A stretch of 61,278 bases of DNA from positions 1 to 61,278 of the IMG/VR virus record IMGVR_UViG_3300033153_009450. One strand, written 5' to 3'. Source of the DNA: a virus. Taxonomy: Duplodnaviria; Caudoviricetes. Below the pieces are notes generated by a model that was given only the letters and a program-made list of their open reading frames with translations, was not told the origin of the DNA and made no database searches. This document shows, piece after piece, positions 7,716 to 43,146 of this stretch (positions are counted from its first letter, which is position 1; every line of letters begins with the position of its first letter). The translations under genes and the position numbers were made by a program.

Positions 7716-7922
7716 TCATAAGAGCGACGGCGGATCACCCCCTTCCTCAGTTTCTTTTGCTGTGAGCTGTGAGCTATGAGCTTCTTCCAGCATCCCCAAC
7801 AACTTGGCCGTAAACCGCATCCGCCCGGCATTCACATATGTAACCCGGAAAACATACGGCCCTAAATTAAACTCAAATCCGATGGGCGGCAGCCACCGCG
7901 CTTTGTCCTTGTTGGTCGCCAA
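7716..7922 (-). CDS. Hypothetical protein
   Basis: 68-aa ORF; C-terminus carries heptamer- and palindrome-derived residues. Confidence 0.5.
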   Translation of the reverse strand: MATNKDKARWLPPIGFEFNLGPYVFRVTYVNAGRMRFTAKLLGMLEEAHSSQLTAKETEEGGDPPSLL

Positions 7923-13107: not shown

Positions 13108-13142
13108 ATCTCTCCTTCAGCCTTCTACCTTCTACCTTCTTC

Positions 13143-14045
13143 CTACCATCCCAATTCATTCCACACCTTTCCATCAAGCATCCGGCCTGCTACTTTCTTG
13201 CCGACTCTCATCATTTGGATACAGTTGTATGGATAGGCGTAGTCATAGCTTTCACCGTCGATATGCACCCATTTACGTTTAGGAGTACTCCCGGATGGCC
13301 AAACAAAATCGAAATCGTCCGGACAGTACTCTCCCCACTGCTTGAAAAAGAAAGGGACCATCGCTTCTTGGCATTGCTCGCGAATAGACCTCACCCATTC
13401 CGGGTGCATGGGCCGCGCATCTGATCCTGATTCACCACCGACAATTACCCAGTCAATTCCCTCGCCGCCGAATTGAGGATCCGCGCAATAATCAATTATA
13501 CTAATCGGCCCTAAAAGCGGCTCGAAATTAACAAACAGATTCCCTTTAATCTTTAGCAGTTCCTGTATCCGCCATGCATACTTTGCTAATTCGACACTCA
13601 CGCCAAACCATACATTAGGCCCTATGTGCAACCAGTGCTCGATAGATCGGAAAAACTTCCTCATCAGGTCGGGGCGCTTCGTAAGAATAAGGTAAGTGTG
13701 CTGACTGGCAACCGCCATGGCCTCAAAAGCCCGGATCTGAAACTCGTACTGCACAAGCGGATGAAACAGATCATTCCAGACAGAATATGTTTTCGGCTCC
13801 TGACGCGGTGTGACTTTATCCAGGTCTTCCCACATCAAACGGATCTTGCCGGTCCACTTACCATTTGAACCAGTAAGTTCTTTGTGCCTCGCACTAACCT
13901 TCTCATTCGGATTATTCTCCCGCATATGAGATGCAGTTGCAGCCCAGCAATGAGCACACCCCTCGGAAACAGGCGAACATCCCTCGACAAGCGACAACGC
14001 CCTATCCCAGTACAATCCTTTTTCAATCCGCTTAATATCCGTCAT
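13143..14045 (-). CDS. Phage Gp37/Gp68 (DUF5131) radical-SAM-like protein
   Basis: GCSPVSEGCAHCWA, DLFH, LTKRP, EPLLG, WVIVGGESG, PFFFKQWG. Confidence 0.92.
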   Translation of the reverse strand: MTDIKRIEKGLYWDRALSLVEGCSPVSEGCAHCWAATASHMRENNPNEKVSARHKELTGSNGKWTGKIRLMWEDLDKVTPRQEPKTYSVWNDLFHPLVQYEFQIRAFEAMAVASQHTYLILTKRPDLMRKFFRSIEHWLHIGPNVWFGVSVELAKYAWRIQELLKIKGNLFVNFEPLLGPISIIDYCADPQFGGEGIDWVIVGGESGSDARPMHPEWVRSIREQCQEAMVPFFFKQWGEYCPDDFDFVWPSGSTPKRKWVHIDGESYDYAYPYNCIQMMRVGKKVAGRMLDGKVWNELGW

Positions 14046-14302
14046 TTTTCCTCCGGAGGAACAAACCCCTTTTTATCCAAACCCAACACTTGAATATCCG
14101 CCTCAGTATGCAAGGTGAACCCCGGATCAGTTCCAAGATCCACTAACCTTTCTTTGGCATTAATGTGGCAAAAAGCATGTTTATCAAGCCATTCTAAAAT
14201 TCCATTATCTCGGGTAGTAATTCCTGTTGACGGAAAATATTTCAAAAGCGTTCTCCAACCGCCACAACCAGTACAACGTATGAACACACGATCATTTGCC
14301 AT
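14042..14302 (-). CDS. Hypothetical protein
   Basis: MANDRVFIRCTGCG; overlaps the next start. Confidence 0.6.
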   Translation of the reverse strand: MANDRVFIRCTGCGGWRTLLKYFPSTGITTRDNGILEWLDKHAFCHINAKERLVDLGTDPGFTLHTEADIQVLGLDKKGFVPPEEK

Positions 14303-14340
14303 CCTTCTTTTCCTTTGAGCTTTCAGCTTTGAGCTTCTTA

Positions 14341-19826: not shown

Positions 19827-20921
19827 ATGCCCGTCTACCCAAAAAACGGCCTTTACTACTGTGTCTACTACCAGGGCAGCAAGCGCGTCTGGGAACCTTT
19901 CGGTCGCGGATCCGGCGCAAAAGAGGCCGCCGAGGCCAGAGACCTTGAAATAAAGCTCAAGAAAAAGACCGGTCAGATGCGACATGCCCCGGCCGGCCGA
20001 ACCTCTTTCATGGACCTGGCCCGCATGTATACCGATGCCCGAAAGAACGAACTGGCCGATAATACCATGGACGGGATCTTGAGAACCATCACCACCTATG
20101 CCGGACCAATCAGTAAAAAACCGATCAACCTGATCACAATGGACGACTGGCGCAAGATCGAGCAGAAAATGATCCGGAGGAAAATAAAGAACCGGACAAT
20201 CAATACCTACTTCGTATACCTTTCAAACATCCTGGACTGGGCCATGGGTGACGGCCTTATGGAAAATAACCCGTGGACCCGCCGGAAACGCCTCAAGGAG
20301 CGAAATAGATTTATGATAGACCTCTTCACCATCGACGAGTTTAATCGCATCCTGGCCGTATCTGCGCCTCATTTAGCATGGATTTTGGACACGGCCTATC
20401 ATACGGGTGTCCGGCCCGGGCCCACTGAACTATTTTGCATGAAATGGGAGGACGTGGATTGGCACCTAAAGCGAATCCGTATCTATTCGCAAAAGACCGA
20501 TACCTGGCGCTGGCAGTACCCGGACAAAAAATACTTCCGCCGCATGGTATCTAAACACAAACAAATGCAGAAAAAGTATCCCGGCTGCCCCTGGATTTGT
20601 TCGTACAACGGCAGGCAGATCACGAGTGTCAAAAGGGTATGGAAGGATGCTAAGGAAAAGGCAGGCATCAAGCGCCGGATCCGGCTCTACGATATTCGTC
20701 ACTTCTACATCACCTATGCCCTGGCGAACGGCGCAAACATAACCGAGTTAGCGGAAAGGGTAGGGCACGTGAACCCGCGCATGATTGTCAACGTCTATGC
20801 CCACCTTGCAAAGGACATCGCCCGCAACAAACCCTTCAAACTCCCCGAACTGAAAATCCCCGCCAAAACAGTAGATATAAACAGTAGACAAAGAAAGGCC
20901 GTCCCCGAAAAGACGGCCTAA
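19827..20921 (+). CDS. int: Tyrosine integrase
   Basis: HTGVRP, YDIRH, VGH...YAH catalytic pattern; adjacent attP. Confidence 0.93.
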   Translation: MPVYPKNGLYYCVYYQGSKRVWEPFGRGSGAKEAAEARDLEIKLKKKTGQMRHAPAGRTSFMDLARMYTDARKNELADNTMDGILRTITTYAGPISKKPINLITMDDWRKIEQKMIRRKIKNRTINTYFVYLSNILDWAMGDGLMENNPWTRRKRLKERNRFMIDLFTIDEFNRILAVSAPHLAWILDTAYHTGVRPGPTELFCMKWEDVDWHLKRIRIYSQKTDTWRWQYPDKKYFRRMVSKHKQMQKKYPGCPWICSYNGRQITSVKRVWKDAKEKAGIKRRIRLYDIRHFYITYALANGANITELAERVGHVNPRMIVNVYAHLAKDIARNKPFKLPELKIPAKTVDINSRQRKAVPEKTA

Positions 20922-21094: not shown

Positions 21095-21718
21095 TCATAA
21101 CAATTGAATTTCGGCTTCATAAAGCGGTAATTTTGCGATGCCGCCGGGTCGAAGGGCCTTTCCGGAAAGTAGCAGCTCAAGCCATTTGTTTGGAAGATAT
21201 TTTTCAAGGATCTTGCGGGGAATCCCGGGATCGGCTAAAAACTTCTTCTTTTCTTTTTTCTCCGGAGGATACCAGACAGAAGCACCGGTCAGCTCACTAC
21301 AAAAAAACTGCGCCCCATTCGTAGACACCCTGGAGATCATATTTCCGAACAGGCTCATGAAATCATATTCGATGCCGAGATGAGCCCATAAAAAGTTTAC
21401 GATCGCAGGACGGAATTCCTCTAAGTCGGGTTTTAATTTGTGGAGATAACACCGGCCTTTGTAGCCCTTCAGTTTTTGGGATAGCAGCCGGGTGTTGACC
21501 TCCCCCTGGTCCGCCTCGATAATGAGCCTTCTCATAACCCCCGCCTGGACCTCTCCTAATGCGCTGCTCGCATGGCTGCGGTCGGACCATAGCCTAATAC
21601 CCCAGGATATAGGGCCTGATCCCACCCAGGTAATAGGATCGCCAGGGCGGATCAGGTCCCGGTAGTGGTAATAACGTTCAAGATTATTGCTCATTTGATT
21701 CCCCTCGACACACGCCAA
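21095..21718 (-). CDS. Permuted NlpC/P60 (YiiX/YebB-like) protein
   Basis: IRPGD...SHAS...EA...YDF...FFCSEL (His before Cys). Confidence 0.75.
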   Translation of the reverse strand: MACVEGNQMSNNLERYYHYRDLIRPGDPITWVGSGPISWGIRLWSDRSHASSALGEVQAGVMRRLIIEADQGEVNTRLLSQKLKGYKGRCYLHKLKPDLEEFRPAIVNFLWAHLGIEYDFMSLFGNMISRVSTNGAQFFCSELTGASVWYPPEKKEKKKFLADPGIPRKILEKYLPNKWLELLLSGKALRPGGIAKLPLYEAEIQLL

Positions 21719-21986: not shown

Positions 21987-22451
21987 TTAAAGTTTATAAA
22001 ACCAATGGCCTCCCCATTTAAAAACAGGGATTTTTTCCTCTGCCCAATAGGGTAGTTTAAACTCATGTATCCTACCGGTAGTGCTCACTTCTGTCTTAAC
22101 CTCCACATGATAATGGTTAGCTCCGTTTGTTATATCGCCAACCCAATCATAAAGAACAAGAAAGGCCGCCGACCAGCACTCCCGCCACCATGCCTCAGAC
22201 CAGAAATGTTTGAAGTACCGATAAAGGAAATATGGGGCTATCTCCATAGTCCTGTTGATAGAATTCAGACAAGAAAATTGTTTAGCCTGTAGAATGACAG
22301 CCTTGTAATCATTAGACCATCTACGAGAATCATTAACCCTGTTACGCACAGCGCAGGCCACGGCCAGCTTGCCTACGAAGTCTTCTCCGGCTGCTTCACC
22401 TATTATCATACCGGTGAATAGGTCTTGTACGTCAAGTTCAGATAGTTTCAT
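21987..22451 (-). CDS. SleB/Hydrolase_2 cell-wall hydrolase (endolysin)
   Basis: IIGEAAGE...AVA...NRV...QFSC...TNGANHYH...HWFY. Confidence 0.88.
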   Translation of the reverse strand: MKLSELDVQDLFTGMIIGEAAGEDFVGKLAVACAVRNRVNDSRRWSNDYKAVILQAKQFSCLNSINRTMEIAPYFLYRYFKHFWSEAWWRECWSAAFLVLYDWVGDITNGANHYHVEVKTEVSTTGRIHEFKLPYWAEEKIPVFKWGGHWFYKL

Positions 22452-22592
22452 TCTTTCCTCTCGTTCTCCCGCCTTTGGCGGGACTAACCACCTGGTTCCG
22501 ATGCTCCGCGTCGGAACTTCTTCGTCTTTACCTTCAGCCTTCAGCCTTCAGCCTTCCACCTGGTTCCGATGCTCCGCGTCGGAACCGATGAT

Positions 22593-22931
22593 TTAACCCT
22601 TTTCCAACACAGCGATCATTTTTTTGAGTTCTTCCAGCGGACTCTTGATCCCTAAATTATTCTTTATCAGCGTGATATCGGTCCGCAACGACTCGAAAGA
22701 TCCTTGTCCTTTTTCCAGCAGGGCTGTATGTTTATTCAAAGATGTACATAAAGTCTTTACCTCGGCTCTCATATCGCACCTCTTGCAATCGTCTTCAGAT
22801 AAATACCCTTTCAGGGTTTCAGTTAGCTTTTCACCAAACTCCCCCCTTGCCTTATAATATCCGATTATCATTCCGGCGATGGTTCCAATTATGGCAACAA
22901 CTGCCACAACCGCCCATGCTTCAGGATTCAT
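22593..22931 (-). CDS. Holin-like single-TM coiled-coil protein
   Basis: N-terminal TM helix; directly upstream of the endolysin. Confidence 0.5.
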   Translation of the reverse strand: MNPEAWAVVAVVAIIGTIAGMIIGYYKARGEFGEKLTETLKGYLSEDDCKRCDMRAEVKTLCTSLNKHTALLEKGQGSFESLRTDITLIKNNLGIKSPLEELKKMIAVLEKG

Positions 22932-22977: not shown

Positions 22978-23385
22978 TTAGCGATACCGTCTATAAGCCA
23001 TTGCCTTAAACGTGCCGCCACAGGTGAAATCTATATAAAGCCCTTTTTCCAGAAATATTGGCGGATTAAAGATAAGCTCCTTGTCCCTGTCAATAGAGCT
23101 GGTCGTGACATACCATATGGGAAACGGACTTGCCCCGCTCGCTTCTGTTGCATTATCGTATGCCGCAACAGTTACGCCACTGGTCCCGTCTGTCATCACC
23201 ACAAAACTATAAAGAAACCCGGGCCTTGTCATTGCGATGCCGTCAGCGATCATCACATCGCCATATTCTGCATATTCCGGGGGCATGAAAGCATTGCTTT
23301 TACCTGGAACAATAAAAGCGGTGCCGATCAATACCAGGGTGATTAAAACAGCAACTAAATATCGTTTCATCTTTTTCCCTCCCAT
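22978..23385 (-). CDS. Secreted beta-rich protein with Sec signal peptide
   Basis: MKRYLVAVLITLVLIGTAFIVPGKSNA then YDNATEASG...FNPPIFLEKGLYID. Confidence 0.65.
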   Translation of the reverse strand: MGGKKMKRYLVAVLITLVLIGTAFIVPGKSNAFMPPEYAEYGDVMIADGIAMTRPGFLYSFVVMTDGTSGVTVAAYDNATEASGASPFPIWYVTTSSIDRDKELIFNPPIFLEKGLYIDFTCGGTFKAMAYRRYR

Positions 23386-23434
23386 AAAAAAAGCCTCTTC
23401 CGGAGCCTGGCGCCGGAGGAGGCTTTTCGTTTTT
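23386..23434. terminator. Intrinsic terminator (bidirectional shape)
   Basis: A7-GCCTCTTCCGG...CCGGAGGAGGC-TTTTCGTTTT. Confidence 0.75.
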
Positions 23435-23466
23435 GCCGGACTTGCCCGGCAGTTAAATTGTTGACT

Positions 23467-23496
23467 ATTAAACTATAAATTTTACATTTTTGTCAA
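23467..23496 (-). promoter_or_regulatory. Putative promoter of the lysis-cassette leader
   Basis: TTGACA-18 bp-TTTAAT on the minus strand, just upstream of the terminator. Confidence 0.5.
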
Positions 23497-23897
23497 CCTT
23501 TCCCCTCAATACCTGCTCCGTTTAATAGTTGCTTATTTACTGCCTTCGATATCGGGTTTCGCAAATTAGACCAATCAGCTTCTTTATCGAACACTCTGTA
23601 TTTATTCCACAGATAGCCAGCATACCACTGAATAAAATTTTTAATAAATACCGCCAACCCTAAAGAAGCAAACACCACCCATAAGGGAATACCCCAACCC
23701 AACTTCATTAAAATGTTATCCGCACCTAAATAGGTTATTACTAAAGCCTGGTAAGATATGAGATTACGAATTAACCCTAATTCAGTCTGTCCTTTCATAT
23801 ATAAATTTCTGTGATGGATATAAAATCGCAAGAGCCTGTTAGCCCTGTCTTGTTTTGGCCCGAACATCCGCCTTACTATGTCTCCTACTAATGACAT
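23493..23897 (-). CDS. Two-TM membrane protein
   Basis: Hydrophobic helices; C-terminal NP motif. Confidence 0.6.
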   Translation of the reverse strand: MSLVGDIVRRMFGPKQDRANRLLRFYIHHRNLYMKGQTELGLIRNLISYQALVITYLGADNILMKLGWGIPLWVVFASLGLAVFIKNFIQWYAGYLWNKYRVFDKEADWSNLRNPISKAVNKQLLNGAGIEGKG

Positions 23898-23900
23898 TAT

Positions 23901-25673
23901 TTAAGCCGCCTTTTTCTCTCCTTCAGCCTTCAGCCTTATACCTTCAACCTGCTCCTCAATCCCCTCTATCCGCTCTATCCCGGCCTTGGCCTCCCTGTGT
24001 TCCGGCCAAAAGGTCAAGGCCGCTTCGTAACATGACTTCGCTAAAAGCAGTGATCCGCTGCGGAATAACACAGTCCCAAGGTTAAGCCACATATCCCACA
24101 GCCTGAGATCCCCATCGCAAAAAACCGCGCATCGAGCGGCGTGTTTATACGCCATCGGGAGATCGTTTTTATTAAGGTGATGCACCGTCACCAATGCGTT
24201 TACCCTGGTCCCTCCGCCATTACATCGCAAGGCCCGGTCCAGGTACCGGTAATCCTTGGATCTCATGTACCGGTCTAAGGAAAAATCCGTGATCAAATGC
24301 CGGACGCTGTATTTGTAAACAAAATATCCGAAAATGATATAACCCGCCAAACAGACGGCTGGTAAACCAGCCACACTGACGGCAGGCGAGCCCGCCAAAT
24401 AATAGCCGACTTGCCCGCCGTCTATCTGGCGGGTCAGGCTGCCGATCAGATACCAGAAAACAATATTTACATTGGTCACATGAAACGTATGGAAAAATAT
24501 TCCGTTAGCAAGAAGGGCCACAAGAGCGGAACCTTGCATTAGCGCAAGAGTATCCTGAGACTCTATCCCCATAAAAAGGGCAACGACAATAAAGCAAAGC
24601 AGCAGCATAAGTCCCGGTATGCCGTTATCCGTAATATGCTGTAAATAGTCGTTATGGGCCTTCTGCGGCCACGGATTCTGATAGTTCTCCTGTTTCAGGA
24701 ACTTACCGCCGGTCCGCATGTCTATATCTCGCTGTAAGAATGGCACGCGGGATTTTAACACATCGAACCCTAAACCGAAAAGAGGGGTCCTGATCACCTG
24801 TTCCACGGCGACCGTCCAATAATTCCACCGTTCATTGATTGAGTTTTTATCCAGGGCCCGGCGTCCTGATTTACCGCCTTTAATCAGGTAAAAGACAACG
24901 CCGCCGCATCCTATGAGCAAAAACGGGATCTCTGATACGGCATCGCCGTAGATAATTAATCCGCAGACAAGGCCAAAAAACGCCCCCCGGCACTCGGTCA
25001 ACCAGAGCGCATAAAGCACAGGGGCTAATGCCACGGTCCATATGAGCGATTGCGCATGAATCAGATAAAGGACAAAGAAAACATGCGGCACAAGGTAAGA
25101 AGCCAACATGTTAGGATTCCCGACAAGGCCCCTGGGCTGAAAGGGCGTCATTAATGTAGGTAAACCCTTCAGGGGTTCCCATTTAAACGTATGCTGGACA
25201 ATGGCGTATATGCTGTTTATTAGGGCCGCCGAAACTAATAAAATCAGACCGACCCCCTGCTCCTGTCCGCCATAGCCCGTTAGGGCGGCGGCGGAATCGG
25301 TGCCGGTAACAAGAAACAGGCCGAAACAAGCGACCATGGTGAACTTTACGAAATTCCGCAATGCAATGTCTTTTCTGGGCGACATCAGGGAGCACAGAAA
25401 CCACCACCCGAACAGTGCAAGGCTTAATGTCAGGATTTCCGGTTCGAAGTATATGGTCCGGCCTGCCCTCCATAGCCCTGAGCTTGTCGAAGAGGCGACG
25501 GAGGGGCCAAAGAACAACCAGTAACCCATTAACAGATATCCGGCCACAGCAAGCAGGGTGTTGCGGGGAGTCCTATACGGCCTGATACTATATCCCGGCA
25601 AAACAAACACGCACGCAAACGCTAAAATCACCATTGAAATTATTGAAAGCATCACCTCTCCTGATAATCGCAT
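23901..25673 (-). CDS. O-antigen ligase / O-oligosaccharyltransferase family (Wzy_C) membrane protein with C-terminal TPR-like helices (start probably 25652)
   Basis: Many TM helices; GLVGNPN, TECRGA, ERWNYW, PLFGLG, AHNDYLQ. Confidence 0.85.
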   Translation of the reverse strand: MRLSGEVMLSIISMVILAFACVFVLPGYSIRPYRTPRNTLLAVAGYLLMGYWLFFGPSVASSTSSGLWRAGRTIYFEPEILTLSLALFGWWFLCSLMSPRKDIALRNFVKFTMVACFGLFLVTGTDSAAALTGYGGQEQGVGLILLVSAALINSIYAIVQHTFKWEPLKGLPTLMTPFQPRGLVGNPNMLASYLVPHVFFVLYLIHAQSLIWTVALAPVLYALWLTECRGAFFGLVCGLIIYGDAVSEIPFLLIGCGGVVFYLIKGGKSGRRALDKNSINERWNYWTVAVEQVIRTPLFGLGFDVLKSRVPFLQRDIDMRTGGKFLKQENYQNPWPQKAHNDYLQHITDNGIPGLMLLLCFIVVALFMGIESQDTLALMQGSALVALLANGIFFHTFHVTNVNIVFWYLIGSLTRQIDGGQVGYYLAGSPAVSVAGLPAVCLAGYIIFGYFVYKYSVRHLITDFSLDRYMRSKDYRYLDRALRCNGGGTRVNALVTVHHLNKNDLPMAYKHAARCAVFCDGDLRLWDMWLNLGTVLFRSGSLLLAKSCYEAALTFWPEHREAKAGIERIEGIEEQVEGIRLKAEGEKKAA

Positions 25674-25801
25674 TCATTATTGGAACAAGTTTCACTGCAA
25701 TCTGGATGGCTGACAATCAGCGCTCCGCACTTTGGGCACCTTCTTTCTGTAAGAATACTTTGGTCGTACAAATCATCACCATACAAATCATCTTCATCCA
25801 T
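25652..25801 (-). CDS. Small zinc-ribbon protein (49 aa)
   Basis: Hand translation MDEDDLYG...CPKCG...CSNNECDYQER*; GAAGGAG RBS; stop overlaps the ligase ATG. Confidence 0.55.
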   Translation of the reverse strand: MDEDDLYGDDLYDQSILTERRCPKCGALIVSHPDCSETCSNNECDYQER

Positions 25802-25900: not shown

Positions 25901-25929
25901 TTGATTTTTCATTAATCCTGTTATAAAAT
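25901..25929 (+). promoter_or_regulatory. Promoter of the lipoprotein moron
   Basis: TTGATT-17 bp-TAAAAT. Confidence 0.5.
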
Positions 25930-25959: not shown

Positions 25960-26337
25960 ATGAAAAATCTATTTTTATTCCTATTTCTCATTCTTCTAAG
26001 TTGCGCCCATTACTCCACAACGGGAGACCAGCCCGAAAGCCGGAACATAATAAATGCACCCGTTGATATGGTCTGGGACCAAACCCTCCGTATTCTCCCA
26101 AACGAACGGATAGATATTAAAAGTGCCGATAAAGCCACATACTCAATAAAGGCACGCAAACGCATGACGCTCTGGAGCATAGGGGATGATATTGCAATAC
26201 GGCTCATCCCGCATGGCAGCCGGACAATAATGCACTTTGAAGCCGAGGCCGGTGGTGTCCAATGGATAGGATGGGGCCACCAGGAGCGCATGGTCAAAAG
26301 CATCTTTGCAAAGATTAAACTTGCATGTGAACGATAA
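25960..26337 (+). CDS. Lipoprotein moron
   Basis: MKNLFLFLFLILLSC lipobox; opposite strand to the late operon. Confidence 0.8.
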   Translation: MKNLFLFLFLILLSCAHYSTTGDQPESRNIINAPVDMVWDQTLRILPNERIDIKSADKATYSIKARKRMTLWSIGDDIAIRLIPHGSRTIMHFEAEAGGVQWIGWGHQERMVKSIFAKIKLACER

Positions 26338-26338
26338 T

Positions 26339-29300
26339 TCATGCTGCCTCTTTTTTTCCTTCAGCCTTCAACCTTCTACCTTCTTTAACCATCATCCTCT
26401 TAATCTTTCCGCGTATCCGTTTACGGGCATTCCTGATGACGGCCCGGATCTTCCTGGCCTTCCATTCATCAGATCTCCGGGAATTAATAATCCCTGCGAG
26501 TTTTCTCCGGGCGATGGTGCTCGATTCCTCTAAATATTTATCATACTGCTCTCGGCTCATTTTCTGGTTGACACCGTTTATATTCAAATACCTGCTCGGC
26601 GGTCCCATATTCAGGGTTTCGTTTTTGAGCATCTCGTTTATAACGTCCATTACAGGGTCCGGCCCCTTTTCCGCCGCAATAATCGGGGTCTCAAGTCTTG
26701 GCCCCCATGCCGTATGAGTCGCAGCGCCCATGCTGTGCATGATTGCCGTCAACCCGTCTTCCTCGCCCTGCATATACCGGATAAAATGACCCACCTGGAT
26801 GGGCTGCATATTTACCACCTGGTTAACCACTACCGATGGCAGCCGGTTCAAACCGCCTACCTTTTCCTGAAAAGCGGATTTTTTAATGGTCTTCCCCGTG
26901 GTCACAAACTCCTTGATTCCCGTAAACGGCCTTTCCGCCCAGTCGGACCCGGAAAACGCGGCGGATGCGGCACGGACAAAAGGACTGCCCTTATGTTTCA
27001 CCAACCGGAAAGGATCAATCAGTTTGAGCGGGTCAAAGAAATGTCCGCCCAAAGAAAATGTCTTTCGCTGGCCTTCGGTATCAACGCCTAACATATGGTA
27101 CAGCTTTGTAACGTCGATCTCGGTCCACCTGAGTTTATTCGCCTTGTTTGAAAGGAGCTGCTCTTCCAGGAATTCCTCGGTCTCATCCGACCCATTGAGC
27201 AGGAGCTGGGCGACAATGGTGCTCACGGCAATCCTGAGCATCACACGGCCCCAGAATCGCCTGTATACATCCTCCATAGCCTTTGGACCGGGGACATCGC
27301 CTACGGTTTTGCTGATAAATTTATTTAGCCCGGGCACCATGCCTGATACGGTCCTGAAATTGGATTCAGTCCAATCCGGCGCAAGCAATAACATCCGGGC
27401 CATCTTCTGAAGCGTGGGATTCCTGCCCATTCGTTTCAGATGCAGCCCGCCAAAGTCCGCATTAATCAACCTGGCGACCCGCTCCGCGATCTGATTAGGG
27501 TTGGGTGGCAGCTTGGACCTGCCGGATGTATATTTCTCATTCTCCTTTTGAAGCTCATGGGTGTACTCGACAACAAACGCCTCGGCCTTGAGACCTGCAA
27601 AGTATTTCTTGAACAGGCTGTCCGTGAAACGCTCACGGTAAAAGCGGCCAGCCTCTATTACCTTGCCGGTCTTTTCTAATCCTAAGTAATTTACCAGTTT
27701 TTCAGTCAATCCCGTGGATGCCCTTAATTCACTCTCCGCCCAATCCTGAAGCTCGCCTACCGTAAGCCCGTTCTTGATCCCTAACTCGATTAGGGGATGC
27801 AGATCCTCGATCTTTTTCAAACCGGCCTTAAATGCCTTGACCGGATTTACGTTCTTCCACCCATGATGTACGCCGAATACCCATGACCGCGTACCTGCCA
27901 TATGATGAAAGAAACTGGACAGGAGTATCCAGGTCTTTATGCCCGTATTAAGCCGGAGAAGCTCCTTTGCTACCGGTGTTGTATTAAAGAGCGTATCCGT
28001 GGCCGTCATCTTATTAATCATCTCGGCGATGGGTTTAGGCGCATAAAGCGGTTGTTTTTCAAACATCTTGGACACGTCCTTGGGGGGCCTCCGCTCGATA
28101 CGATCATAATGTCTTTTGTCAGCAAATTCCTCGGCCTCTTCCATGGTATCAAACAGCTTTATGGCCTTTTTCGATTCTTCATTTTTGTAAACCGCAAATT
28201 GCTCCGGTATGCGCTCGGGTGTGGTAGCAAAGAACTTGCGGCCATATGTGTCCACAACAAGGGCCTCTTCATCTCTGAATTCGGATTCAATCTCGGCCTT
28301 ACCCGCCCATCTCCACACAGAGAAACCGGACGCCTTTAGCGGTGCATATCCGGGTTTGGGCTTTGCCGTAAACATGGCATTGCCGGATACATCGACCGTA
28401 GCAACTCCGCGCTGCAAGAAAGCCTTGTTTGACATGATAGTAGCAAGTTCGGTCATATATCGTTCGTAGCTGCTCGTAATCCCCTGGACACGAAGCTCGT
28501 AACCTGCCATCCAGCCGTCTAAGATAGTATCGAAAGTCCTTTGCTTGGCCGCAGTGGTGTAGACCTTGAACCCGTAACCGGGACCGGTACCCCTAAATTC
28601 TTCGGCTTTGCCTTCCGGTAGTTTCCACAAACGCCGTACATAATTGTCCCGGTGTGTCTTAATGATCTTGTGGGCATTGGCTAACGAGAACGCATCTTCA
28701 AACAGATCACCCATATGATCAACAAAGTCATTCTGCTCATCTGTCAGCTTAAACGCCTGGTCTAATATTTTTAACTGGCCCTTGATCTTTAACCGGTCCC
28801 TGGCCGGAATATCCCCGGCTAATTGTTCTTTGGCCCATGCCCTGAATTCATCCGCTTTTTCCAGGTTATCGCCCAGATCCCGGCGTATCGTCATTGCCTT
28901 GTCAAGTTGATCCGATGCAAAAGACCTCTTCAATTCCGGCTTATATGCAAACCCCAGGGTAAGTTTCTTCCTGCTTGCCGGACCCGCCAACCTTTTGACC
29001 TGATCCTGGAGATCCCAGACACTGTTCTGGATCCGGAAAACAGCAAGGTCTTTCATCTCAAATAGCTTGTTCACAAAAGAACGATCGTTCTCAATATCCT
29101 GCGCAACCTCGCGCCCGGTCGGCTGTTTCTGTACGGAATAGTACGCCTGCCCCTCAAAAAGCACCGACTGTTTCATCTCCGATGTAATGTCAACGGAATG
29201 GACGGTCTCAAGATCATCCTTAAAATCGGCCTCGCTCGCTCGTTCTAAATTTTTCGCCATATCCTTTCTAAGCCATTTAGGTCCTTCAGGCGTTCGATAA

Positions 29301-32300
29301 TAAGCCCAATCTCCTACTTCTAATCCAACAGCACCCGCAGCGGGTTCTTTTGTAACAATCTTTTGCTCTCCAACCTTACCACTCCACTGCTTTACATATT
29401 TCCGCATGAACCCGGGGAGCAACTCATCATAGAACGCCCTCATGCCTATACCGCCGATGGAAAGATCCTCACCCTTAAACGTGCCGTAAGGTTCCTTAGA
29501 GGTTATTATCTGTTGTGCAAGGGGTTTGCCGATAACGTCTTTAAGTTCTACTTCTTTTCCTTTTATGGCGGTTGTACCTTTGAGGGGAATATTGGCGCTA
29601 AAAACAGAATTGTTTTTTTTCTTTGCTGAAACCTCTACCTCGCCTGCCGCAGTATTCTTAAACCATCTAATCTCATCAACATTCTGCCTTAATGCATCTT
29701 CATACCGTGCGATCTGGTGTTTGCCCTTAGTCCAGGCTACGGTATCAAACCCATTTTCCGCTGCATACCTGAGCATCCGCTTCATACACACTTCATGCCA
29801 GTTTTCAAGAAAAGGAGCTGGGGGGACACCAACATCAGTAGCATACATTCTGTTATGTAACCCCCTTGCTTCTTCTTCCAACATCCTTAGCCTGTCAGCA
29901 TCTTTATCTTTTGTGGCACTGATTATATCTCTCTCTATTTGTTTTAATCTATCAATTGCGTCTGTTTTTTCTTTTGGTGTCAATGGTTTAAGCTGACCCT
30001 TAAACCCCTTCTCCTTAGCTTCCTGTAACCAATCCGACTGAATCTCTTCTATAAACAGAACCCGCTTACCTTCGGCATCGGTACGCTCGTTAAACCGGAC
30101 ATGAGCTAAGACATTAGGTTCATCCCAGTGGGTAGCGCGGTAAGTATCTGGTGAAATTATTTCATCTTTACTCTTTCTTCTGTGAAGTAAACTGGCGATA
30201 TGTTTTTCGTCAACATTTAGATCGTTGAACCTTTTCCCATATTGTTCTTGTGCTGCATCATCTAAGCTAAAATCTTGTTTGACGGATATTTCCGGCAACA
30301 TAAACAGCAATTCCCGGTATCCTTCGCCGCCGGGGAGGGTATATGTTTCAAATTTCGGGGAACCTGCGCCTTCTTTTAGCTGGTCAATATGTTGTTCATA
30401 AAGACCTTCAATATCAACACCTGTTAATTTCAATAACTCTTCACTTGCATTATCATTTCCTCCGCCGCTGTCCTCATATTCATTAAGCAATTCATCAACT
30501 CTGCGTTTCCAAAAAGCAGATACAGAGATACCAATATCTCTATCTGGATATTCTTCAACAATCATCTCTTCGTCAATCATACCTCCTGGCTCTGCTTCTC
30601 CTATGATTCCCCGGAATTCTTCAATAGCATCTGTCAACGCCGCGTCTTGAATGTCAGCGGTAATGTCTGTATGCCTTACACTCTTCTCAATTTCCCTAAT
30701 CTCAATCTGATTCGCCTTCAGAAAATCAAGAAAGGCATCCTTATCAATTTTGCCTTCCTTCTGATTCTCTTTAAGCCAATCCTCAACACCCATCCATTTC
30801 ATTTCTGCCGGTTTTACCTGTTTCCGTTGCAGCCATTTAGTTAATGACTGTACCTTGCGGGGCATATCCGTTGCCGTCTCAACGGCACGCATAAGCTGTG
30901 AATAAAAGGGAGGGGCGGTTGTCGCAAACATCTGGGCTTGCTCCGCAGCGCCCGGCCCGGTTTTGAGATCAAAGATTCTCCCCGTTTCAATATCCCGCGC
31001 AACTCCCCGCGCAGTCCGGTGAAACAGGTTCACAAAACGTTCAACCCAATCCCTGATCTTTTTCAAGATCCGGCCAACAGGGCCTTTAACATCCTTGTTT
31101 AACTGATCAGCGATATAGCTTGCCCTGTCCTCCGGTCCGCCTATGTCCTCCTTATTTCTTGTAGTAAACTTGCCGTTATTGACCAATTGCTTGATCCGGG
31201 TCTTCAACGCTGCAATATCCCTGTTTGTCAAAATACCGGCATCCTCAAAGAAATGAACCGACTCATGGCTCAGGGTCCATTTATTCCCAATATCCTCCTG
31301 AATCTCGATTACGCCGCTCTTATACTTTCCGGCAATAAACTCGCCGGTCTCCTTCTGACGACCATAGGTTAATTTAAAAGACGCGCTATCCTCGGAAATC
31401 TGTTGAACGGTCTTTATTGTAACGCCATGCCCGGCCTTTGTGCGCACCCATATATCACCATCCGGCGAGATCCCCACATGCTGACCCTTGAACACGGCCC
31501 GCACATCGTCGAGGGATATGGCATCCGTAACAAATCCCCTGGTTTTCTGCCGTTTCGCGGCTTCTGGCAAAACCCCGAACGATTCATGCAATTGCTTGAT
31601 ACGAGCAGGGAGATCTTTCAGGTCTTTGACGGTTACGGAAGAATTCGTTACATTATCCGTAAAGGCATACGGCCTTCCCGCAAGGCTCTCCCATCGCCCG
31701 TCATATGTGAGATTATGTTTTTTGGTAAGCGCTGCAATGGCAGGAGTAACGGAATACTGCTCCGGTTTCTCCATGTCCGCCTTAGCCTTGGCGGCGGATT
31801 CGCCCGTTACCCATGGAGATTCGCCATATTCCTCGACAGATTGTTCAGAAAGCCCTAAGACCTCTTCCTCACCATGGCCTTCTAATGCTTGCCTTGCATT
31901 ATCTATAGCCTCTTTTTTTGAAAGACCTTGCCTTACGATAATACCGCTTCGGGCATCTGAAACAATCCATGTTCCCATGTCTTTATCTTGATGGATAAAT
32001 GTCTCAAGCCAGGGTACAATTTCAACCCCTTTCGCATCAAGCAGTGCTTCAAACTCTTTATTATTATTTAATTTATAATACGCTCTGCCCGCCGCAGGCG
32101 CTATTTCCGGCGCAGCGCCCATCAAAGTTGCATTGATCTCTCTTGATTTTTTCCTTAATTCCTCTAACTTGTCTATGTCTTTGAAGGTTTCTTTGTTAAC
32201 GGATTCGCTCTCAAGGCTGGATACCTCGGTATTGAGTTTCTTGATCAGGTCTTCATATCTCTTCAACTCACCATCTAATCCGTCAATCTCCCTGTTCAAC

Positions 32301-35300
32301 TGGCTGATATAAGTGGATATGGCGCTTTCTTCGTTCGCATAAGAGCTGACAGGCTTTACAGGAATCATATTCCCGTGTTCACCAACAAATAATGTCTGTG
32401 TATTTTGATATATATTATCAAGATACAGCGTGAATCCCCGGTACCCGCCAACAGCTAATGTTCGCTCTCTGAATTTCTTCTTGCCCTCGATCTTAGCCAT
32501 CCCGTATAGCTCGGCAAGGGCCTGGCCTGCCTCTTTCTTGTCCGTGATGGTTTTTTCTTCAATGTCGTATTCAGGAATTCCGTGGATTATAAAGCTGAAT
32601 TCCTTGTCGTCAGGTTTTGGCTGCCTGGTCTCAATATCCTTCTTTATATCCTCTATCCTTCTTCCCACCGATGTTATTCGGGTCTTTCTCGATGCAATCC
32701 CGGATTGTAAATCGAACCTCTGATCCATCCATCCACGATGCATGGCCTCCATTTTTATCAGGTCGGCATCAACCCTGACCTTTTCCAGAATCAGCGGGTT
32801 GCTGGACGCAATAGCCTTTACAGTGGCATAATCCAGAACGGCCTTGCCGATATCCTCCATCTCATCGACACCGCCCTTCATGGCCTGCACAATGAATTTT
32901 GCCTTGTTCTCTAATATCTGCCAGCGATACGCATCGAACGTGCCCCGTGTGACGTACCGGATAATATGAACTTCATCGTTCAGATTGTCGGGCCTGATAG
33001 CCCTGCCGTCTCTCTGTTCCACATCGGAAGGACGCCATGGTGCATCAAGATGATGAATGGCAATCAGTTTTCTTTGCACATTCATACCTTCTCCCATCTT
33101 GCCGGTGCTTCCCATCAAGATTCGCACCTGCCCTCTATTCATTTTTAAAAATAGTGCCGCCTTTTTCGCATCCGTATTGGCATCATGGATAAAGACGATC
33201 TCCTTCTCCGGTATGCCTCTATCTATGAGTTTTTGCCTTACATCATGATACACGTTGAATTCGTCTTTTTTGGGAATCGAAAAATCGCAGAAAATAAGCT
33301 GGGTGAGCTTGTCTTCGGAAGTCTTTTTATAAATATCAACAGCCCGGTTGATCATTAGATTGACCTTACTGCCGGGATTATCAGGTAGGGTCGGCTCGAT
33401 AAGCCGCATATCAAGGGCCGCCTTTACCCCATCCGTTGTTACGACTAAGGCATTATCTTCTCTGGGGTCAACCTGTCCACTGCGTATCGCATCCATGCGC
33501 CCGTCTAATTCCTGGATATACTCTTTCTGTTCATCCGATGGTTCCGCCCGGTTGATATCAGGTTCCCCGCCGACCATCTTGGGGACTTTCAGAAAGGGAA
33601 TATCTTCAATATGCACAATATCCGCGAACTCCCGGAACAGGGTGGATAGCTGGCCCATATTAATGAAATTCCTGAATCTGGTATGCATCCTGAAACCTGA
33701 TCCGGTAGGCGTTACCTCCGGCTCTTCCGCAACATCCCCGAAAGTAGCGGCCCATGCATCGAAATTATGGATCTGCAGATCTTTCAATACATCCTGGGCC
33801 AGATACCTCTGTATGGTAAACATCTCGCCCATGGAGTTTGAAATAGGAGTGCCGGTTGCAAAGATAACACCCCTGCCATTATTAAGGCGCTGGACATACT
33901 GTGCCTTTAGAAATAAGTCCATGGTCTTGTCCGCGCCCTGCATCTGTACCCCGGCAACACGGGTCATGCGGGTTGCGGCCCACAGGTTCTTGAACTTGTG
34001 GGATTCATCCACAAACATATAGTCGATGCCTAATTCCTCGAATGTTACGGTCTTGTCCCTCTCACCTTTTTTAAGCACCGTAGCCAGGCGGACTTCCAGC
34101 CGTCTTTTTGACTTTTCAAGCTCCTTGACTGTCTTGGTCTTGCGCCTGCCGCGATCATAAGCCGGGAGACCAGCCTCTTCTTCTATAACAGCGGCCTCTA
34201 ATTCCTGGATCTGCGCCCGGATAAAATCGGCCTGGGCCTTCTTGCTCATGGGTAGCTTGATCATATTTGGGTGGGTGATTATGACTGCATCCCAGTCGCC
34301 CGTGGTTATCCGGGCCATAAACTCGGCCCTCTGGGCGGGTGTGAGGCTCTTTTCAGTAGGGGCAAGGAGCTTGGCGCCGGGATAAAAACGCATGAATTCG
34401 CTCTGCCACTGCATAATCAAATGCTTTGGCACGATAAACAGAGGCTTTTTCGATAATCCTAACCGCTTCAGCTCCATTGCCCCCGTGATCATAGAGAGCG
34501 TCTTACCCGATCCAACCACATGGCCTAACATGGTATTCCCGCCGTGTATAATCCGCCACACGGCATCTTTTTGATTAGGTCTCAGGCTGGCCCACGCAGC
34601 CATGCCTGGCAAACGATCAGGAAGATGGCCTCCGTCATATTTCCGGTTGCGCACACTGTTAAAATTACGGTTATAGATTTCAATCAGATTCCGTTGTCTT
34701 TCGATATCCTCAAAGATCCATTTCTCAAAATGTTCTTTTATCTCTTTCTGCTTGACCTGCGCATTCACGGTGGCGGTCTGATCAACATGGGATTTGCCCT
34801 CGCTGTCGGTATACGTAATAACCGTGGCCTTTAGATTGAGCGCATCCCCGATCAGGCGGATTGCATCCGCTCCGTGAACACCCCATCTTTGCTCTCTCAA
34901 CATATTGTCAGAGCCGGACCATCTATCAAATTCCGTTACCCATGTGGCCGTCTCCGGGATATATTTTACCTTGTGCCCCCGGGCGCTTATGAGTTCGCTC
35001 AGGTACTCTTCGATATAATTGTTAGGAATCCAGCCCATACCCAACCGTGCCTTAATCCTGGATGGCGGGATATCCTCGGGTTGGGCCTTTTCCAGCGCCT
35101 CTATGTTTTCCTTATATTTACTGTCTATCTCCGCTGCTGCCCTGGCCGCCTCTAACTTGGCCCTTACATTGCCGGAGAGATATTCGTCCGCAGTTACCCG
35201 CTTCTCGCCTTCGGGATCTAAATAAACCATCCCTTTGAGTTCTTTTTCCAGCGATTCAACGCTTTGCCCGGATATACGGGCCATATGCTCGAAATCCAGC

Positions 35301-38300
35301 CCACCTCGCTCAAACATCGAGACGACAAGGGCATCCTGGGCTGTTTCAACCTTCTCGACCGGTGTGAACCGGGCCATAGTCGGCTTTCTGAATATATCGG
35401 CCTTCTCGGCTGTTTTTTCTTCCGGGTCGTAAACTTCTAATGAAAGCAACAGGGGAAGATCAGGATCATCTTCTACTGACTTCATGTTATATACATTATG
35501 GATATATCCGTAATTTTTGACAAAACGGTCGTAAACCTGGTTGAGTTTTTTCAGGTCGGATTGTTCTAAGTCTGTTTTGCCTTCAAGCTGGTTGTGGAGT
35601 GTCTGGCGGGTAATGTCCCGCAACCGGACAAGCCCCTTTATACGACCCAATTCCTTCTTTGTGCCGGGGACCGGGATAGCGTCGTCACCCTTTTTCTGGT
35701 AGATCTCCCCGTCCTGCTCAAAATAGGCGAAATTTTTGACGGTATCCGGCGCTGGCATAAGGTCTTCTGTTTTCGGGGCCTCTGTAGCCTCATGCACGGG
35801 TTTTATATACATCTCCGCAGGTATGCCCGTATCAATCGCACCGGCAAGGGCCTCGCCTAAATCCCGTCCGTCAGACGCCAGAGCCGCCCGTCCCGGATGC
35901 AGCTTATCGTCAACAAGTTTTCCAAGCATCATGTGCGGATATTTGGCAAAATACTCATTAATAAGGTATTTCTTATATTCCTTTGTCTCTACCCATTTAG
36001 CCCCCCTGGGCTTCTTGCCTGCCTCTAACTTGCGCAAAAAGATGATATCCGCCGTAACCTCGGTATTTGCTATCTTCTTGAACGCATCGCCCGGTAAGCG
36101 GATCGCGGCGACCAGTTCCGCACGCTCGGAGATGTATTCCCGGATCCGGGAATCCTTTTTATTCATCATACCCGCAGAAGTAATAAAGGTAATCAGGCCG
36201 CCGGGCCGTACCTTATCAATGGATTTTGCAAAGAAATAATCATGAATGAAAAATTTCAGGTGGTTATAGTCGGGATCAAAGACCTTGTAATCCCCGAAAG
36301 GAACATTGGAAATGGCAAGATCAAAGAAATCATTTGGCAGTTTGGTGTCTTCATATCCCTGCACGCGGATATCCGCTTCCGGGTAAAGCAGCTTTGCGAT
36401 CCTGCCGGATATTGAATCAAGCTCGATGCCGACAATTTTAGAATTCCATTCTGCCGGTACAAGCCCTTCAAACATACCCGTACCGCCCATGGCTGGATCT
36501 AAAAGTCGTCCGCCGTCAAATCCCATGCGTTTTAAGGCATCGTATATATTTGAAACAATTAAGGGCGAGGTATAGTGTGCATTAGGTGTGCTGGCCCTTG
36601 CGGCCTCGTATTCCTCTTCGGTGAGTAGTTCTTCTAATTTTTCAGCACGCCCGGTCCATGGTGTATCTTTATAGGAATAGGTCTTAAACGCCTCGGGCAT
36701 ACCGCCCCAGCCCACATACTTGACCAGAACAGCCTGGTCTTCAGGTGTGGCCTGCCGTTTTTCTTCCTCAATTTTTTTTAGGAGTTTTATGGCAGCGATA
36801 TTGCGGTCGTATTTCGCGACCTTGCCGCCGGATTCGATATCGTCTCGGTCGGTTATTCGGTAGTTTCGCCCAGCTTCGGGACCTCTTCCTCGCTCGGCAG
36901 GAGGATGTGCTGGGGCAGTACGATCTCTTCGGCCTCGTAGATCTTCAGCCCCTTCAGCACGAGGTTGCGCACTTCCTCGCCCGCCCTCTCCCCGGACTCC
37001 TTCAGGAACTCGTTCAGCTCTCCCTTCTCCTGCAATTCCTGAAACATCGTCGGGCGGAATTCCTTCAAGTGGTCGTGTGCCCTCAGTGCGTACCCCCTCA
37101 ACTCTTTCAGGTTTGCGTCCACCTTCTTCACCCCCTATCTCTTCTCTGACGAATTTTTCAAAATAGGGCCTACCCCTAATTCCAAGATTGTCTACGGCAA
37201 TGGAAACAAATTCTTCAAGGCTTTTTCCCGCAGCAACGATCTCGTCCCATGCCTCTTTGAGTAAGACCCTGACCTGTTGCCATGTTGTATCGTTCTCATC
37301 TATTTCCTCAAACGATATTACGCCTTCATCACCTAATAACTTATTGATCTCTTTAAACTTGGAAACTGCGTTCGCAACATGCTCCCCGGCCTCTTTCAGT
37401 TTCTCCTTTGCCGGTGGTTTCGCACCCTGCCTGGCAGCCTGTTCCTTTTTCTTTTCTGCCAGCCTGCGATCATATGCTGCTAACAAATCTTCAGGGGTTG
37501 CTTTTAATTTAACCTCTTTTTTCTCCTTTGTCAAGGCCCCTGTTTCTTCCTTGTCCGCCGGAGCTTCTCTGTCCGCCTTAGCCTTGGCGGCGGCGGAAGC
37601 GGCGGCGGATTCAACAACTTCCGGCGCCTTACCTGTCTCGGCCTCCACTTCTTTGTCCGATGCCTGTATCTTAGCACCGCTGTCGGTCTTGACAAGATAA
37701 CCGACCATTCCACCGGCCTTTGTCCCGTAGATCGTTGTAAACTTAATAGAAATTACCTCGACAACCTCACCATGCTGCTTGGTCCCGGTCTTAAGTACAA
37801 CCCGATCACCCTTTGCGAACTTGCTTGGCTTTTCTACCTCTTCTTCTACCCCAGCTTCTTTGACTTCGCCTTTTTTTTCTTCCAGTACTCCACCTGGTTC
37901 AGCCGGTGATACGCCGTGCCCTTCGCCGGGTTCTTCCGGTCGCCTTTCTCCTGGTACGGGCCGCCCAGGTGCCTTCTCTTCCCGTCCGGGCCTTTCTTCT
38001 CGCTCAGGACGTGATACCCGTCCTTTCTCTTCACTAACATGTTCCTTCTCCTTAATGGTATATGGCAGGCTTTCTTTTTCAAGAATTTCTATAACCTTAT
38101 CGTAAGGGATACCAACGTCTTCCCCTTCTTCATTAAAGAATACATTCTCGCCGAAAACCTCAACAGCGGCATCCTGCTCATCGCCGGAAAAATCATCAGG
38201 CAGCCATGCCCTGCCATCATCCCGGATCTCAACATAACTCCTGCCGCCCCGGGCATTCTCGAAATCAATCCCTGCTACGTCTTTGGCAAGCAGTGTCTTA

Positions 38301-42670: not shown

Positions 42671-42680
42671 TCGTCAATCA

Positions 42681-43097: not shown

Positions 43098-43146
43098 TTA
43101 TCTGTTTCCCCCAATCTTCAATCTTCAATCTTCAATCGTCAATTCC

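Follow-up and report, generated by a model that had tools for sequence, protein, structure and literature searches.

The 61,278-nucleotide stretch of viral DNA analysed here (Duplodnaviria; Caudoviricetes; IMG/VR record IMGVR_UViG_3300033153_009450), which we call the window, carries on its minus strand at positions 23901-25652 a gene for a 583-residue membrane protein. As judged from its sequence, the gene product is a Wzy_C-superfamily enzyme with an intact catalytic hallmark, and it is extended at its C-terminus by a tetratricopeptide repeat (TPR) domain. The results given below establish its family and fold, the arrangement of its domains, its catalytic motif, its slot in the genome and the fact that a clade of phages conserves it. 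Which donor and acceptor it uses, on which side of the membrane it works, when it is expressed and what the phage gains from it are inferred, and by analogy with the beta-polymerases of phages epsilon15 and D3 we tentatively favour a role in remodelling the surface glycan of the host for superinfection exclusion.

The listed open reading frame (ORF) runs to 25673 and the likely true start of the gene is the ATG at 25652, which has a GGAGAGG ribosome-binding site ahead of it, agrees with the database gene call and overlaps the stop of an upstream 49-residue ORF by one base. All the motifs named in an original prediction made from the letters alone were found where it had placed them on the minus strand, these being GNPN (residues 178-181 in the numbering of this protein, P0001), RGA (222-224), ERWNYW with its R..W pattern (274-279), PLFGLG (290-295) and AHNDYLQ (332-338), and an HX10G motif begins at H333 (H333-X10-G344). 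The Pfam Wzy_C model (PF04932) matched the protein with an E-value of 1.1e-12 and 48.4 bits against a gathering score of 31.7, over model positions 3-149 of 149. Together with a WaaL-like fold and the intact catalytic hallmark, this score bears out the family assignment made in that prediction. The invariant residues R275, G293 and G295 and the H333-X10-G344 motif are held in the region of a large loop between helices 9 and 10 (residues 259-342; 24627-24878, minus strand), which is the predicted catalytic loop and is placed at the outer face of the inner membrane. R270 and H300 of the D3 polymerase Wzy-beta are reported to be essential, as are the histidine of HX10G and an upstream arginine in P. 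aeruginosa WaaL (PMC4815439), and equivalent triads are given as R215/R288/H338 in E. coli WaaL and R224/R298/H349 in PglL (PMC3643930).

Residues 1-413 (24414-25652, minus strand) form a 12-helix membrane core which was assigned a WaaL-like fold with VIA-align and the family hydropathy profile. An AlphaFold2 (AF2) model built on seven homologues had a predicted local distance difference test score (pLDDT) of 70.7, and its residues 1-413 were observed to superimpose on residues 10-407 of the cryo-EM chain of WaaL, 7tpj_B, over 347 of 403 residues (Z 15.4; root-mean-square deviation 5.0). The next-best membrane structures were the SEDS proteins RodA and FtsW with Z of 11-12, and the top Foldseek match was again WaaL (7tpg_B, E 1.3e-3). 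The sequence-profile match to WaaL was marginal (E 0.025); it was lost with a five-sequence profile of the membrane core alone, and no residue-by-residue map onto WaaL was obtained. A PDB search with the single sequence returned TPR proteins only, and a structure search of BFVD gave TPR-type matches only, none of them at E <= 0.001. In NCBIfam just partial matches far below threshold were seen (IctB, 32.5 bits against a cut-off of 366; PEP_O_lig_1, 21 against 188), and PHROGs returned no family for the protein.

The membrane core is followed by a 13th transmembrane (TM) helix (about residues 430-449) and a three-repeat TPR domain (about 450-583), which span 23904-24365 on the minus strand according to the model and the profiles; the total of 13 hydrophobic helices comes from both the model and the family hydropathy. 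A single-sequence Pfam search sees one weak repeat (TPR_1, E 0.075). The family profile matches an engineered TPR protein (chain 9qhb_A) at E 3e-36 over profile positions of about 418-520, and residues 446-583 of the model match many TPR proteins at Z of about 13, which confirms the TPR-like helices that had been noticed by eye. Of 55 relatives, at least 90% share D513, G514, W519 and P550 in this domain. Since four helices lie between the catalytic loop and the TPR domain in the model, both are predicted to be on the same side of the membrane. This side is taken to be extracytoplasmic by analogy, because the loop is reported to be periplasmic in WaaL, PglL and Wzy-beta (PMC4815439). The positive-inside rule was uninformative, as lysine and arginine were found to be most frequent in the loops that homology makes extracytoplasmic, and therefore the TPR domain was assigned to its predicted side by counting helices and from the WaaL match.

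We also noticed three insertions that occur only in this phage's protein. The model has low confidence in these stretches, which fall in short, predicted cytoplasmic loops. All three coincide with GC-rich palindromic elements inside the gene, at 25266-25295 (residues 120-132), at 24414-24433 (residues about 408-420) and at about 25467-25514.

A search with the family profile returned 18,240 proteins at E <= 0.001 among 1.84 billion representatives. At E <= 1e-30 the matches form 120 clusters (50% identity), and nearly all of the best 150 listed are 500-575 residues long and match end to end. An alignment was made of 55 relatives picked from these 150, with full-length matches favoured. In all 55 relatives R275, G293, G295, H333 and G344 are invariant and Pfam Wzy_C is above threshold, while N179, L187, G231, P290, Q307 and G347 are conserved in at least 90% of them. 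On the evidence of the alignment, the catalytic site is intact and under selection. The twenty family clusters that were looked up are all metagenomic, with two members of one cluster labelled 'viral metagenome', and the longest contigs in five of these clusters measure 58.3, 59.7, 60.1, 61.5 and 62.3 kb, none being longer. The Wzy_C-TPR gene marks a metagenomic clade of phages of about 60 kb.

Bacterial proteins of the same full-length architecture do exist, annotated as 'O-antigen ligase family' proteins of Myxococcota, Bacteroidota, Elusimicrobiota and Verrucomicrobiota with Atlas TM-scores of 0.75-0.84 over about 500-545 residues, and none of those retrieved is characterised. Their spread over several phyla would suit a passenger gene which was picked up from a host and has no role in the phage. 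They are labelled bacterial, whereas the close relatives of the phage protein were found on metagenomic contigs of at most about 62 kb and in viral-labelled records. A passenger is hard to reconcile with the number of clusters in the family and the full-length matches of nearly all the best 150, with the invariant catalytic residues, with the lack of any contig above 62.3 kb among the twenty clusters and with a position that is kept across phages only 26-39% identical in this protein, and we regard this explanation as hardly credible. Base composition gives no sign of a recent transfer from a host, the GC content of the gene (0.487) falling within the range of 0.42-0.52 across the window. Searches of genome contigs with the family alignment and with the capsid protein gave no match, so that no host can be inferred. 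An ordinary bacterial polysaccharide locus with a 450-residue Wzy_C protein lacking TPR (L015) was discarded as a comparison, being too distant to inform.

The context of the gene was read in five records, namely the window, G003, L013, G005 and G006, where all but L013 are complete or near-complete carriers; G002, a capsid relative, ends inside the giant gene that precedes Wzy_C and is uninformative on its context. In all five records the Wzy_C gene was found between virion and lysis genes, and in four of them it follows the giant gene. The order in the window (61.3 kb, complete, with a tyrosine integrase) is giant gene, opposite-strand lipoprotein gene, 49-residue ORF, Wzy_C, a 134-residue membrane protein (23493-23897, minus strand), a signal-peptide protein, a TM protein and endolysin. 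G005 (60.1 kb, terminal repeats) has the giant gene, a 64-residue ORF, Wzy_C (32% identical), a TM protein, an amidase endolysin, a second TM protein and an integrase that is 50% identical to that of the window. In the L013 record (SDBT01000586.1; 58.3 kb) the giant gene is followed by a 74-residue ORF, Wzy_C (39% identical), small ORFs, a TM/coiled-coil protein and a weak M15-peptidase match. The giant gene of G003 (68.8 kb, 100% complete, capsid 76% identical) overlaps the start of Wzy_C (26.5% identical), after which come a small TM protein and other ORFs; neither a tyrosine integrase nor a recombinase of any other family was found among the 60 ORFs scanned in this genome.

G006 (59.7 kb, 90% complete) has a different virion backbone and no homologue of the giant gene, and its Wzy_C gene (30% identical) is located between head and tail-fibre genes. 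No tyrosine integrase match was obtained in it with PF00589, the only family searched. Its Wzy_C gene is followed by a homologue of the 134-residue membrane protein of the window (E 1.6e-16, 30% identical) and by two signal-peptide-like proteins, and further on by an endolysin-like metallopeptidase and a homologue of a 207-residue protein of the window. Part of the block of Wzy_C, membrane protein and lysis genes has therefore moved between virion backbones. Endolysin-like genes lie 0.8-3.9 kb downstream of Wzy_C and are supported by a tool in three of the five records (window, G005 and G006), the match being weak in L013 (Peptidase_M15_2, E 0.052), while in G003 such a gene was recognised by eye alone. 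The Wzy_C proteins of the window and G003 (26.5% identical) have diverged more than the capsid (76%) and the other virion proteins (30-53%), which fits a function that is specific to the host glycan.

The position of the gene is shared with known conversion genes. In epsilon15 the order is tailspike, beta-polymerase (10 TM) with a two-TM inhibitor of the alpha-polymerase, a 3-TM protein, holin, endolysin, Rz, attP and integrase, and in D3 it is tail fibre, iap, the O-acetylase gene oac, wzy-beta, endolysin, attP and integrase. The window and G005 show the same slot, with Wzy_C between the virion or spike genes and the lysis cassette and near the integrase. As further likenesses, a small membrane protein is encoded beside the Wzy_C enzyme in these phages and in the window, a glycan-cleaving protein of spike type is also carried (depolymerase-like in the window), and a GNAT acetyltransferase is found among the virion genes of both epsilon15 and the window. 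In phage VarioGold, a Wzy_C gene is described as adjoining the lysis cluster, with genes for signal-peptide and TM proteins and the integrase coming next (PMC9658991), and Acinetobacter prophages are reported to pair a depolymerase with Wzy (PMC13228068). Therefore, by analogy with these systems, surface-glycan remodelling appears to be the best-supported function, and the modification of lipopolysaccharide or another surface glycan for exclusion, which the original prediction gave as its alternative, fits better than the virion glycosylation it put first.

In the mechanism that we propose, the inner-membrane Wzy_C transferase would take host-built glycan on undecaprenyl pyrophosphate and transfer it at the outer face of the inner membrane. 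Acting as an alternative polymerase or ligase, it would alter the O-antigen or a capsule-like glycan, and this glycan may be the one that the beta-helix depolymerase of the phage recognises and cuts. A cell in which the phage resides or replicates would then cease to be a good receptor, and the outcome would be superinfection exclusion together with a smaller loss of progeny on debris, as with the epsilon15 and D3 beta-polymerases. The 13th helix may set the TPR domain beside the catalytic loop, where it could dock a partner from the polysaccharide machinery or hold the acceptor; periplasmic TPR domains are known as scaffolds in polysaccharide export (a reference cited in PMC2943079; PMC9384988).

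Several observations weigh against this proposal. The epsilon15 and D3 polymerases have 386-392 residues and 10 helices with no TPR domain, whereas the phage protein has 583 residues, 13 helices and a TPR domain, and their conversion genes are transcribed against the late genes while the Wzy_C gene of the window is co-oriented with them. No BLAST-level similarity to D3 Wzy-beta was seen in a BLASTP comparison (E 0.35). An hhalign comparison did place R270 and H300 of D3 on R275 and H333, and the motif of the epsilon15 beta-polymerase over the same site at E 3.3e-4 with a probability of 38%, which speaks for the proposal, but the probability of the D3 alignment was only 3.5%. In a tblastn search of 50,697 deposited phage records no match was obtained for the Wzy_C-TPR protein. 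The 134-residue membrane protein, which shows no similarity to the epsilon15 inhibitor gp22, may be nothing more than a holin. A search of the 160 bases preceding the 49-residue ORF gave no sigma-70-like promoter. In addition, two of the four complete or near-complete carriers have no tyrosine integrase match, from which it follows that classical lysogenic conversion is not the whole story. The Wzy_C unit of the window also differs from those of epsilon15 and D3 in having no acetylase or recognisable inhibitor and in having relatives with no such match.

The protein might instead be a PglL/PglS-like protein O-oligosaccharyltransferase (O-OTase), where the TPR domain at the outer face would recognise exported proteins to which a lipid-linked glycan of the host is added. 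The targets could be envelope proteins of the host such as pilins, which would mask receptors, or the phage's own exported proteins, namely a 135-residue neighbour and the depolymerase- or fibre-like proteins. The size fits this reading, as the protein has 583 residues and its relatives mostly 500-575, against 550-600 for PglL and 520-550 for PglS (PMC9829042, Table 2). A TPR motif at the C-terminus is reported both for PglL and for WsfB, an S-layer O-OTase (PMC2943079), and the larger C-terminal periplasmic region of PglL and PglS was proposed to read internal sequons (PMC9829042). The predicted location of the TPR domain and catalytic loop on one side of the membrane also agrees with an O-OTase, and the conserved D513, G514, W519 and P550 point to a specific binding surface. 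The 135-residue protein, which has a signal-peptide-like N-terminus and an Ala/Ser/Pro-rich stretch, is encoded two genes downstream, and PglL genes are said often to adjoin their targets (PMC3643930). Furthermore, the gene is kept in genomes with no tyrosine integrase match and inside late co-oriented blocks. Nevertheless, the PglL_A family (PF15864; named in PMC3643930) was not returned for the phage protein at E <= 0.1 or at E <= 1, where the HMMER filters drop most matches above E of about 0.1, and the 25 families listed for the set of 55 do not include it. The 135-residue neighbour is an orphan which is absent from G003, G005 and L013, and among the bacterial Wzy_C-TPR proteins, which are common, none of those retrieved is characterised. 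No phage-encoded O-OTase turned up in a literature search of limited scope. We consider this reading less likely than surface-glycan remodelling but a serious rival to it; the likeness to PglL drawn in the original prediction holds for the size and the C-terminal domain and is not borne out by the PglL_A model.

The candidate exported proteins were examined with an in-house heuristic for signal peptides, applied to greedy ORF calls with no trained predictor and with D3 and epsilon15 as the only two control phages, and this origin of the calls counts against an O-OTase. The main candidate in the window is a 589-residue, beta-helix, depolymerase-like protein with a signal-peptide-like N-terminus (49337-51106, minus strand), which has a weak Pfam pectate-lyase match (PF12708, E 0.0044) and whose neighbours in the Atlas belong to clusters, often viral, of beta-helix proteins and capsule depolymerases. 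This protein had been put forward as a signal-peptide tailspike: the signal-like N-terminus, by the heuristic, and the beta-helix or depolymerase-like fold were recovered, which does not make it a virion part or a glycoprotein. Five ORFs were flagged in the window, comprising this protein, the 135-residue neighbour, the lipoprotein, the first helix of Wzy_C and one probably spurious antisense ORF. In G005 three consecutive proteins of the tail-fibre region were flagged (47182-48384, 48386-48865 and 50113-51075 among the listed sites), in G006 two, one of them with fibre-type repeats (31358-32422, 33796-34188), in G003 two small proteins (67708-68058, 68093-68452) and in L013 two. The beta-helix protein of the window and one G005 protein share their first 110-120 residues including the hydrophobic leader (E 2.6e-8). 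We also observed that the small leader proteins of G003 and G006 share a short ...LVCDPQ... start after the leader (E 0.001).

Signal-peptide-like N-termini on depolymerase- or fibre-like proteins were thus seen in three of the four complete or near-complete carriers, those of the window, G005 and G006 being in favour of an O-OTase, while in the two controls no spike or fibre was flagged, the only positives being Wzy-beta, Rz-like proteins and a single small TM protein. The co-occurrence of such proteins with the Wzy_C gene, which the original prediction had proposed as a test, survives this comparison (three of four carriers against none of two controls) and is suggestive but thin, the heuristic being crude and the controls two. 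Virions of tailed phages are assembled in the cytoplasm, and the simpler reading of an exported depolymerase is therefore that it attacks the envelope glycan as a free enzyme. Cytoplasmic assembly likewise means that an exported spike could not join the virion by any known route, which makes decoration of the virion, as a special case of an O-OTase, very improbable; nothing links the enzyme to virion proteins, and this part of the original prediction was not upheld. A broader scenario can be drawn in which the clade of about 60 kb phages carries a PglL-like O-glycosylation enzyme whose TPR domain would select exported proteins, including the phage's own depolymerase- and fibre-like proteins, in a late extracytoplasmic glycoprotein programme based on lipid-linked glycans of the host, and this we judge to be quite unlikely.

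A role in lysis or in the late envelope has also to be weighed, where the enzyme would divert undecaprenyl-linked intermediates to weaken the wall before endolysin acts or would alter an outer glycan that hinders release. In the records examined Wzy_C borders co-oriented genes of lysis type, a block made up of Wzy_C, the 134-residue protein and the 207-residue protein is common to the window and G006 despite the different virion backbone, and the presence of the gene in genomes with no tyrosine integrase match is consistent with such a role. However, adjacency to lysis genes is also the rule for the converting genes of epsilon15, D3 and VarioGold, and a simple sink for intermediates needs no conserved TPR binding surface. 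We also know of no precedent for a Wzy_C enzyme in phage lysis, although no search of the literature was aimed at this point, and a lysis role is improbable.

The genes on either side of Wzy_C were found to match their earlier description in part. The acidic, Cys-rich 49-residue ORF upstream (25652-25801, minus strand) gave only a weak Zn_ribbon_3 match (E 0.066), which leaves its description as a Zn-ribbon gene weakly supported, and it is not conserved in the relatives. At the equivalent place in L013 a 48-residue ORF upstream of Wzy_C (9628-9774, plus strand) ends in a C..C..C..C tail and is unrelated to it in sequence. The 134-residue membrane protein directly downstream of Wzy_C, described earlier as having two TM segments, was found in a hydropathy scan to have one strong hydrophobic segment, a second, weaker one being seen by eye. 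Homologues 62-64% identical to it were found, one of them on a contig of 62338 bases, the same size as the longest given for the Wzy_C homologue P0004, and the protein co-occurs with the Wzy_C gene in at least three phages. It may serve as a holin, or it may be the counterpart of the inhibitors that act on the host polymerase in epsilon15 and D3. The 135-residue protein (22978-23385, minus strand), for which a Sec signal and beta strands had been noted, has beta strands and, by the heuristic, a signal-peptide-like N-terminus. Its single-sequence AF2 model (pLDDT 55.6) was too poor for a structure search; no homologue of it was found, and the ORF that occupies its position in G006 shows no similarity to it.

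The next gene (22593-22931, minus strand) encodes a 112-residue protein with an N-terminal TM helix and a remainder that looks like coiled coil by eye, and analogous ORFs occur in L013 and G005; it is read as a member of the lysis cassette by its position. The endolysin (21987-22451, minus strand) is of the Hydrolase_2 or SleB-like type (Pfam E 2.7e-12) and matches PHROG endolysin families. Beyond it lies the gene for the 207-residue protein (21095-21718, minus strand; PHROG 1128), whose homologue in G006 adjoins the endolysin-like gene. A lipoprotein gene with the lipobox LLSC is located on the plus strand (25960-26337), between the giant gene and the Wzy_C unit, with a sigma-70-like promoter at 25901-25929, and it looks like a moron. 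A small lipoprotein gene on the strand opposite to the late genes was also observed in L013 (14266-14562, minus strand; lipobox before Cys), and both are candidate exclusion morons.

The window is a complete phage genome, where a 114-base identity between its two ends represents direct terminal repeats; the IMG/VR classification is likewise that of a viral genome bearing such repeats, with a completeness of 100% and a length of 61.3 kb. Nearly all the genes are carried on the minus strand, in the order terminase (59418-60893), portal-like protein, major capsid protein (53998-54966), tail and fibre-type proteins, GNAT acetyltransferase, the giant gene, the Wzy_C unit and endolysin. On the plus strand beyond endolysin are the tyrosine integrase (19827-20921), a repressor-like gene and then early and replication genes. 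The Wzy_C unit is therefore the far end of a co-oriented virion-plus-lysis block of about 40 kb, 3 kb from the integrase, and its co-orientation with the structural genes was correctly described before. No glycosyltransferase or sugar-synthesis family was found among the 38 ORFs of the window scanned with Pfam, a set that does not cover all the small ORFs, in agreement with the original prediction. The giant gene (26339-40834, minus strand) encodes 4831 residues with an S-adenosylmethionine (SAM) methyltransferase domain at about residues 641-750 and an SNF2/ResIII helicase domain at about 2083-2614 (Pfam). Its homologues have 3917 residues in G003 and at least 3100 in G005 and L013, and the protein may be akin to very large injected proteins with an anti-restriction role, such as DarB. 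We also noticed a 113-residue ORF (58692-59033, minus strand) located between the terminase and portal-like genes, with an N-terminus resembling a twin-arginine signal (Pfam TAT_signal, E 7e-4, below threshold), in which a stretch of 59 residues matches residues 76-134 of the capsid protein of this phage with 36% identity.

Repeated elements are common in this genome. The GC-rich palindromes fall into two families with 12 and 11 copies by pattern and are found both between genes and in frame within them; other sites, among 20 or more, are 7705-7734, 9133-9158, 31776-31798, 37572-37609, 39390-39415 and 55520-55539. In the giant protein they encode repeated Ala-rich peptides. In addition, tandem 7-base repeats of three kinds, with about three units each, occur just upstream of many minus-strand gene starts, and on the coding strand they read GAAGGCT, AAGCTCA and GATTGAA (families D1, D2, D4, D7, D9, D12 and D14). 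Sites of the first group are, for example, 13112-13158, 23918-23964, 26349-26395, 48997-49043, 51558-51604, 52892-52938, 53926-53972 and 56720-56756, the second at 422-469, 14292-14339, 47997-48044 and 55056-55103, and the third at 42654-42687, 43098-43145 and 59385-59418. These repeats run into the 3' ends of the upstream genes, and as a result the giant and Wzy_C proteins share a near-identical ...RLKAEG.K.AA tail. They may be class-specific signals for translation or transcription. A conserved hairpin of about 25 bases (D11) is also found between late genes, at 22493-22521 and 22561-22589 (two copies before endolysin), 44006-44034, 51125-51153, 53966-53994 (after the capsid gene) and 60922-60950 (before terminase), and one copy was flagged as terminator-like on the plus strand.

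The Wzy_C polymerases known before from serotype-switching phages such as epsilon15 and D3 are short, are borne by temperate phages and are read against the late genes. What is new here is a conserved TPR domain predicted on the catalytic side, in a gene that keeps one position in a widespread uncultured phage clade, that is found in some carriers with no tyrosine integrase match and that travels with lysis genes between virion backbones. Should the enzyme prove to be a polymerase or ligase, the clade would show that receptors can be remodelled by phages other than prophages. Should it instead O-glycosylate proteins, no earlier phage-encoded example was found in our limited literature search, and it would be a compact candidate tool for the production of glycoconjugates. 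In either case the fusion to TPR offers a way into the many bacterial Wzy_C-TPR proteins that are uncharacterised.

Among the characterised systems, WaaL of Cupriavidus metallidurans (7tpg/7tpj) is the best structural match for residues 1-413 and belongs to the same catalytic-loop family. WaaL has about 400 residues and 12 helices with no TPR domain and is not phage-borne, whereas the phage protein has a 13th helix and a TPR domain and so departs from the WaaL layout. The likeness to PglL, PglS and WsfB, compared by published descriptions only, lies in a Wzy_C core with a C-terminal extracytoplasmic helical or TPR region, in a similar length and in the reliance on lipid-linked glycans that are made by other genes. 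The protein differs from PglL and PglS in being phage-encoded, in showing no detected PglL_A signature and in having no pilin or known glycoprotein gene beside it. The combination by which PglL and PglS are recognised, a Wzy_C core with a larger periplasmic C-terminal domain in 520-620 residues, was nevertheless found in the phage protein, with the membrane side being predicted. Thus, in its size and its extra C-terminal domain the 583-residue protein is closer to PglL and PglS than to WaaL or Wzy-beta.

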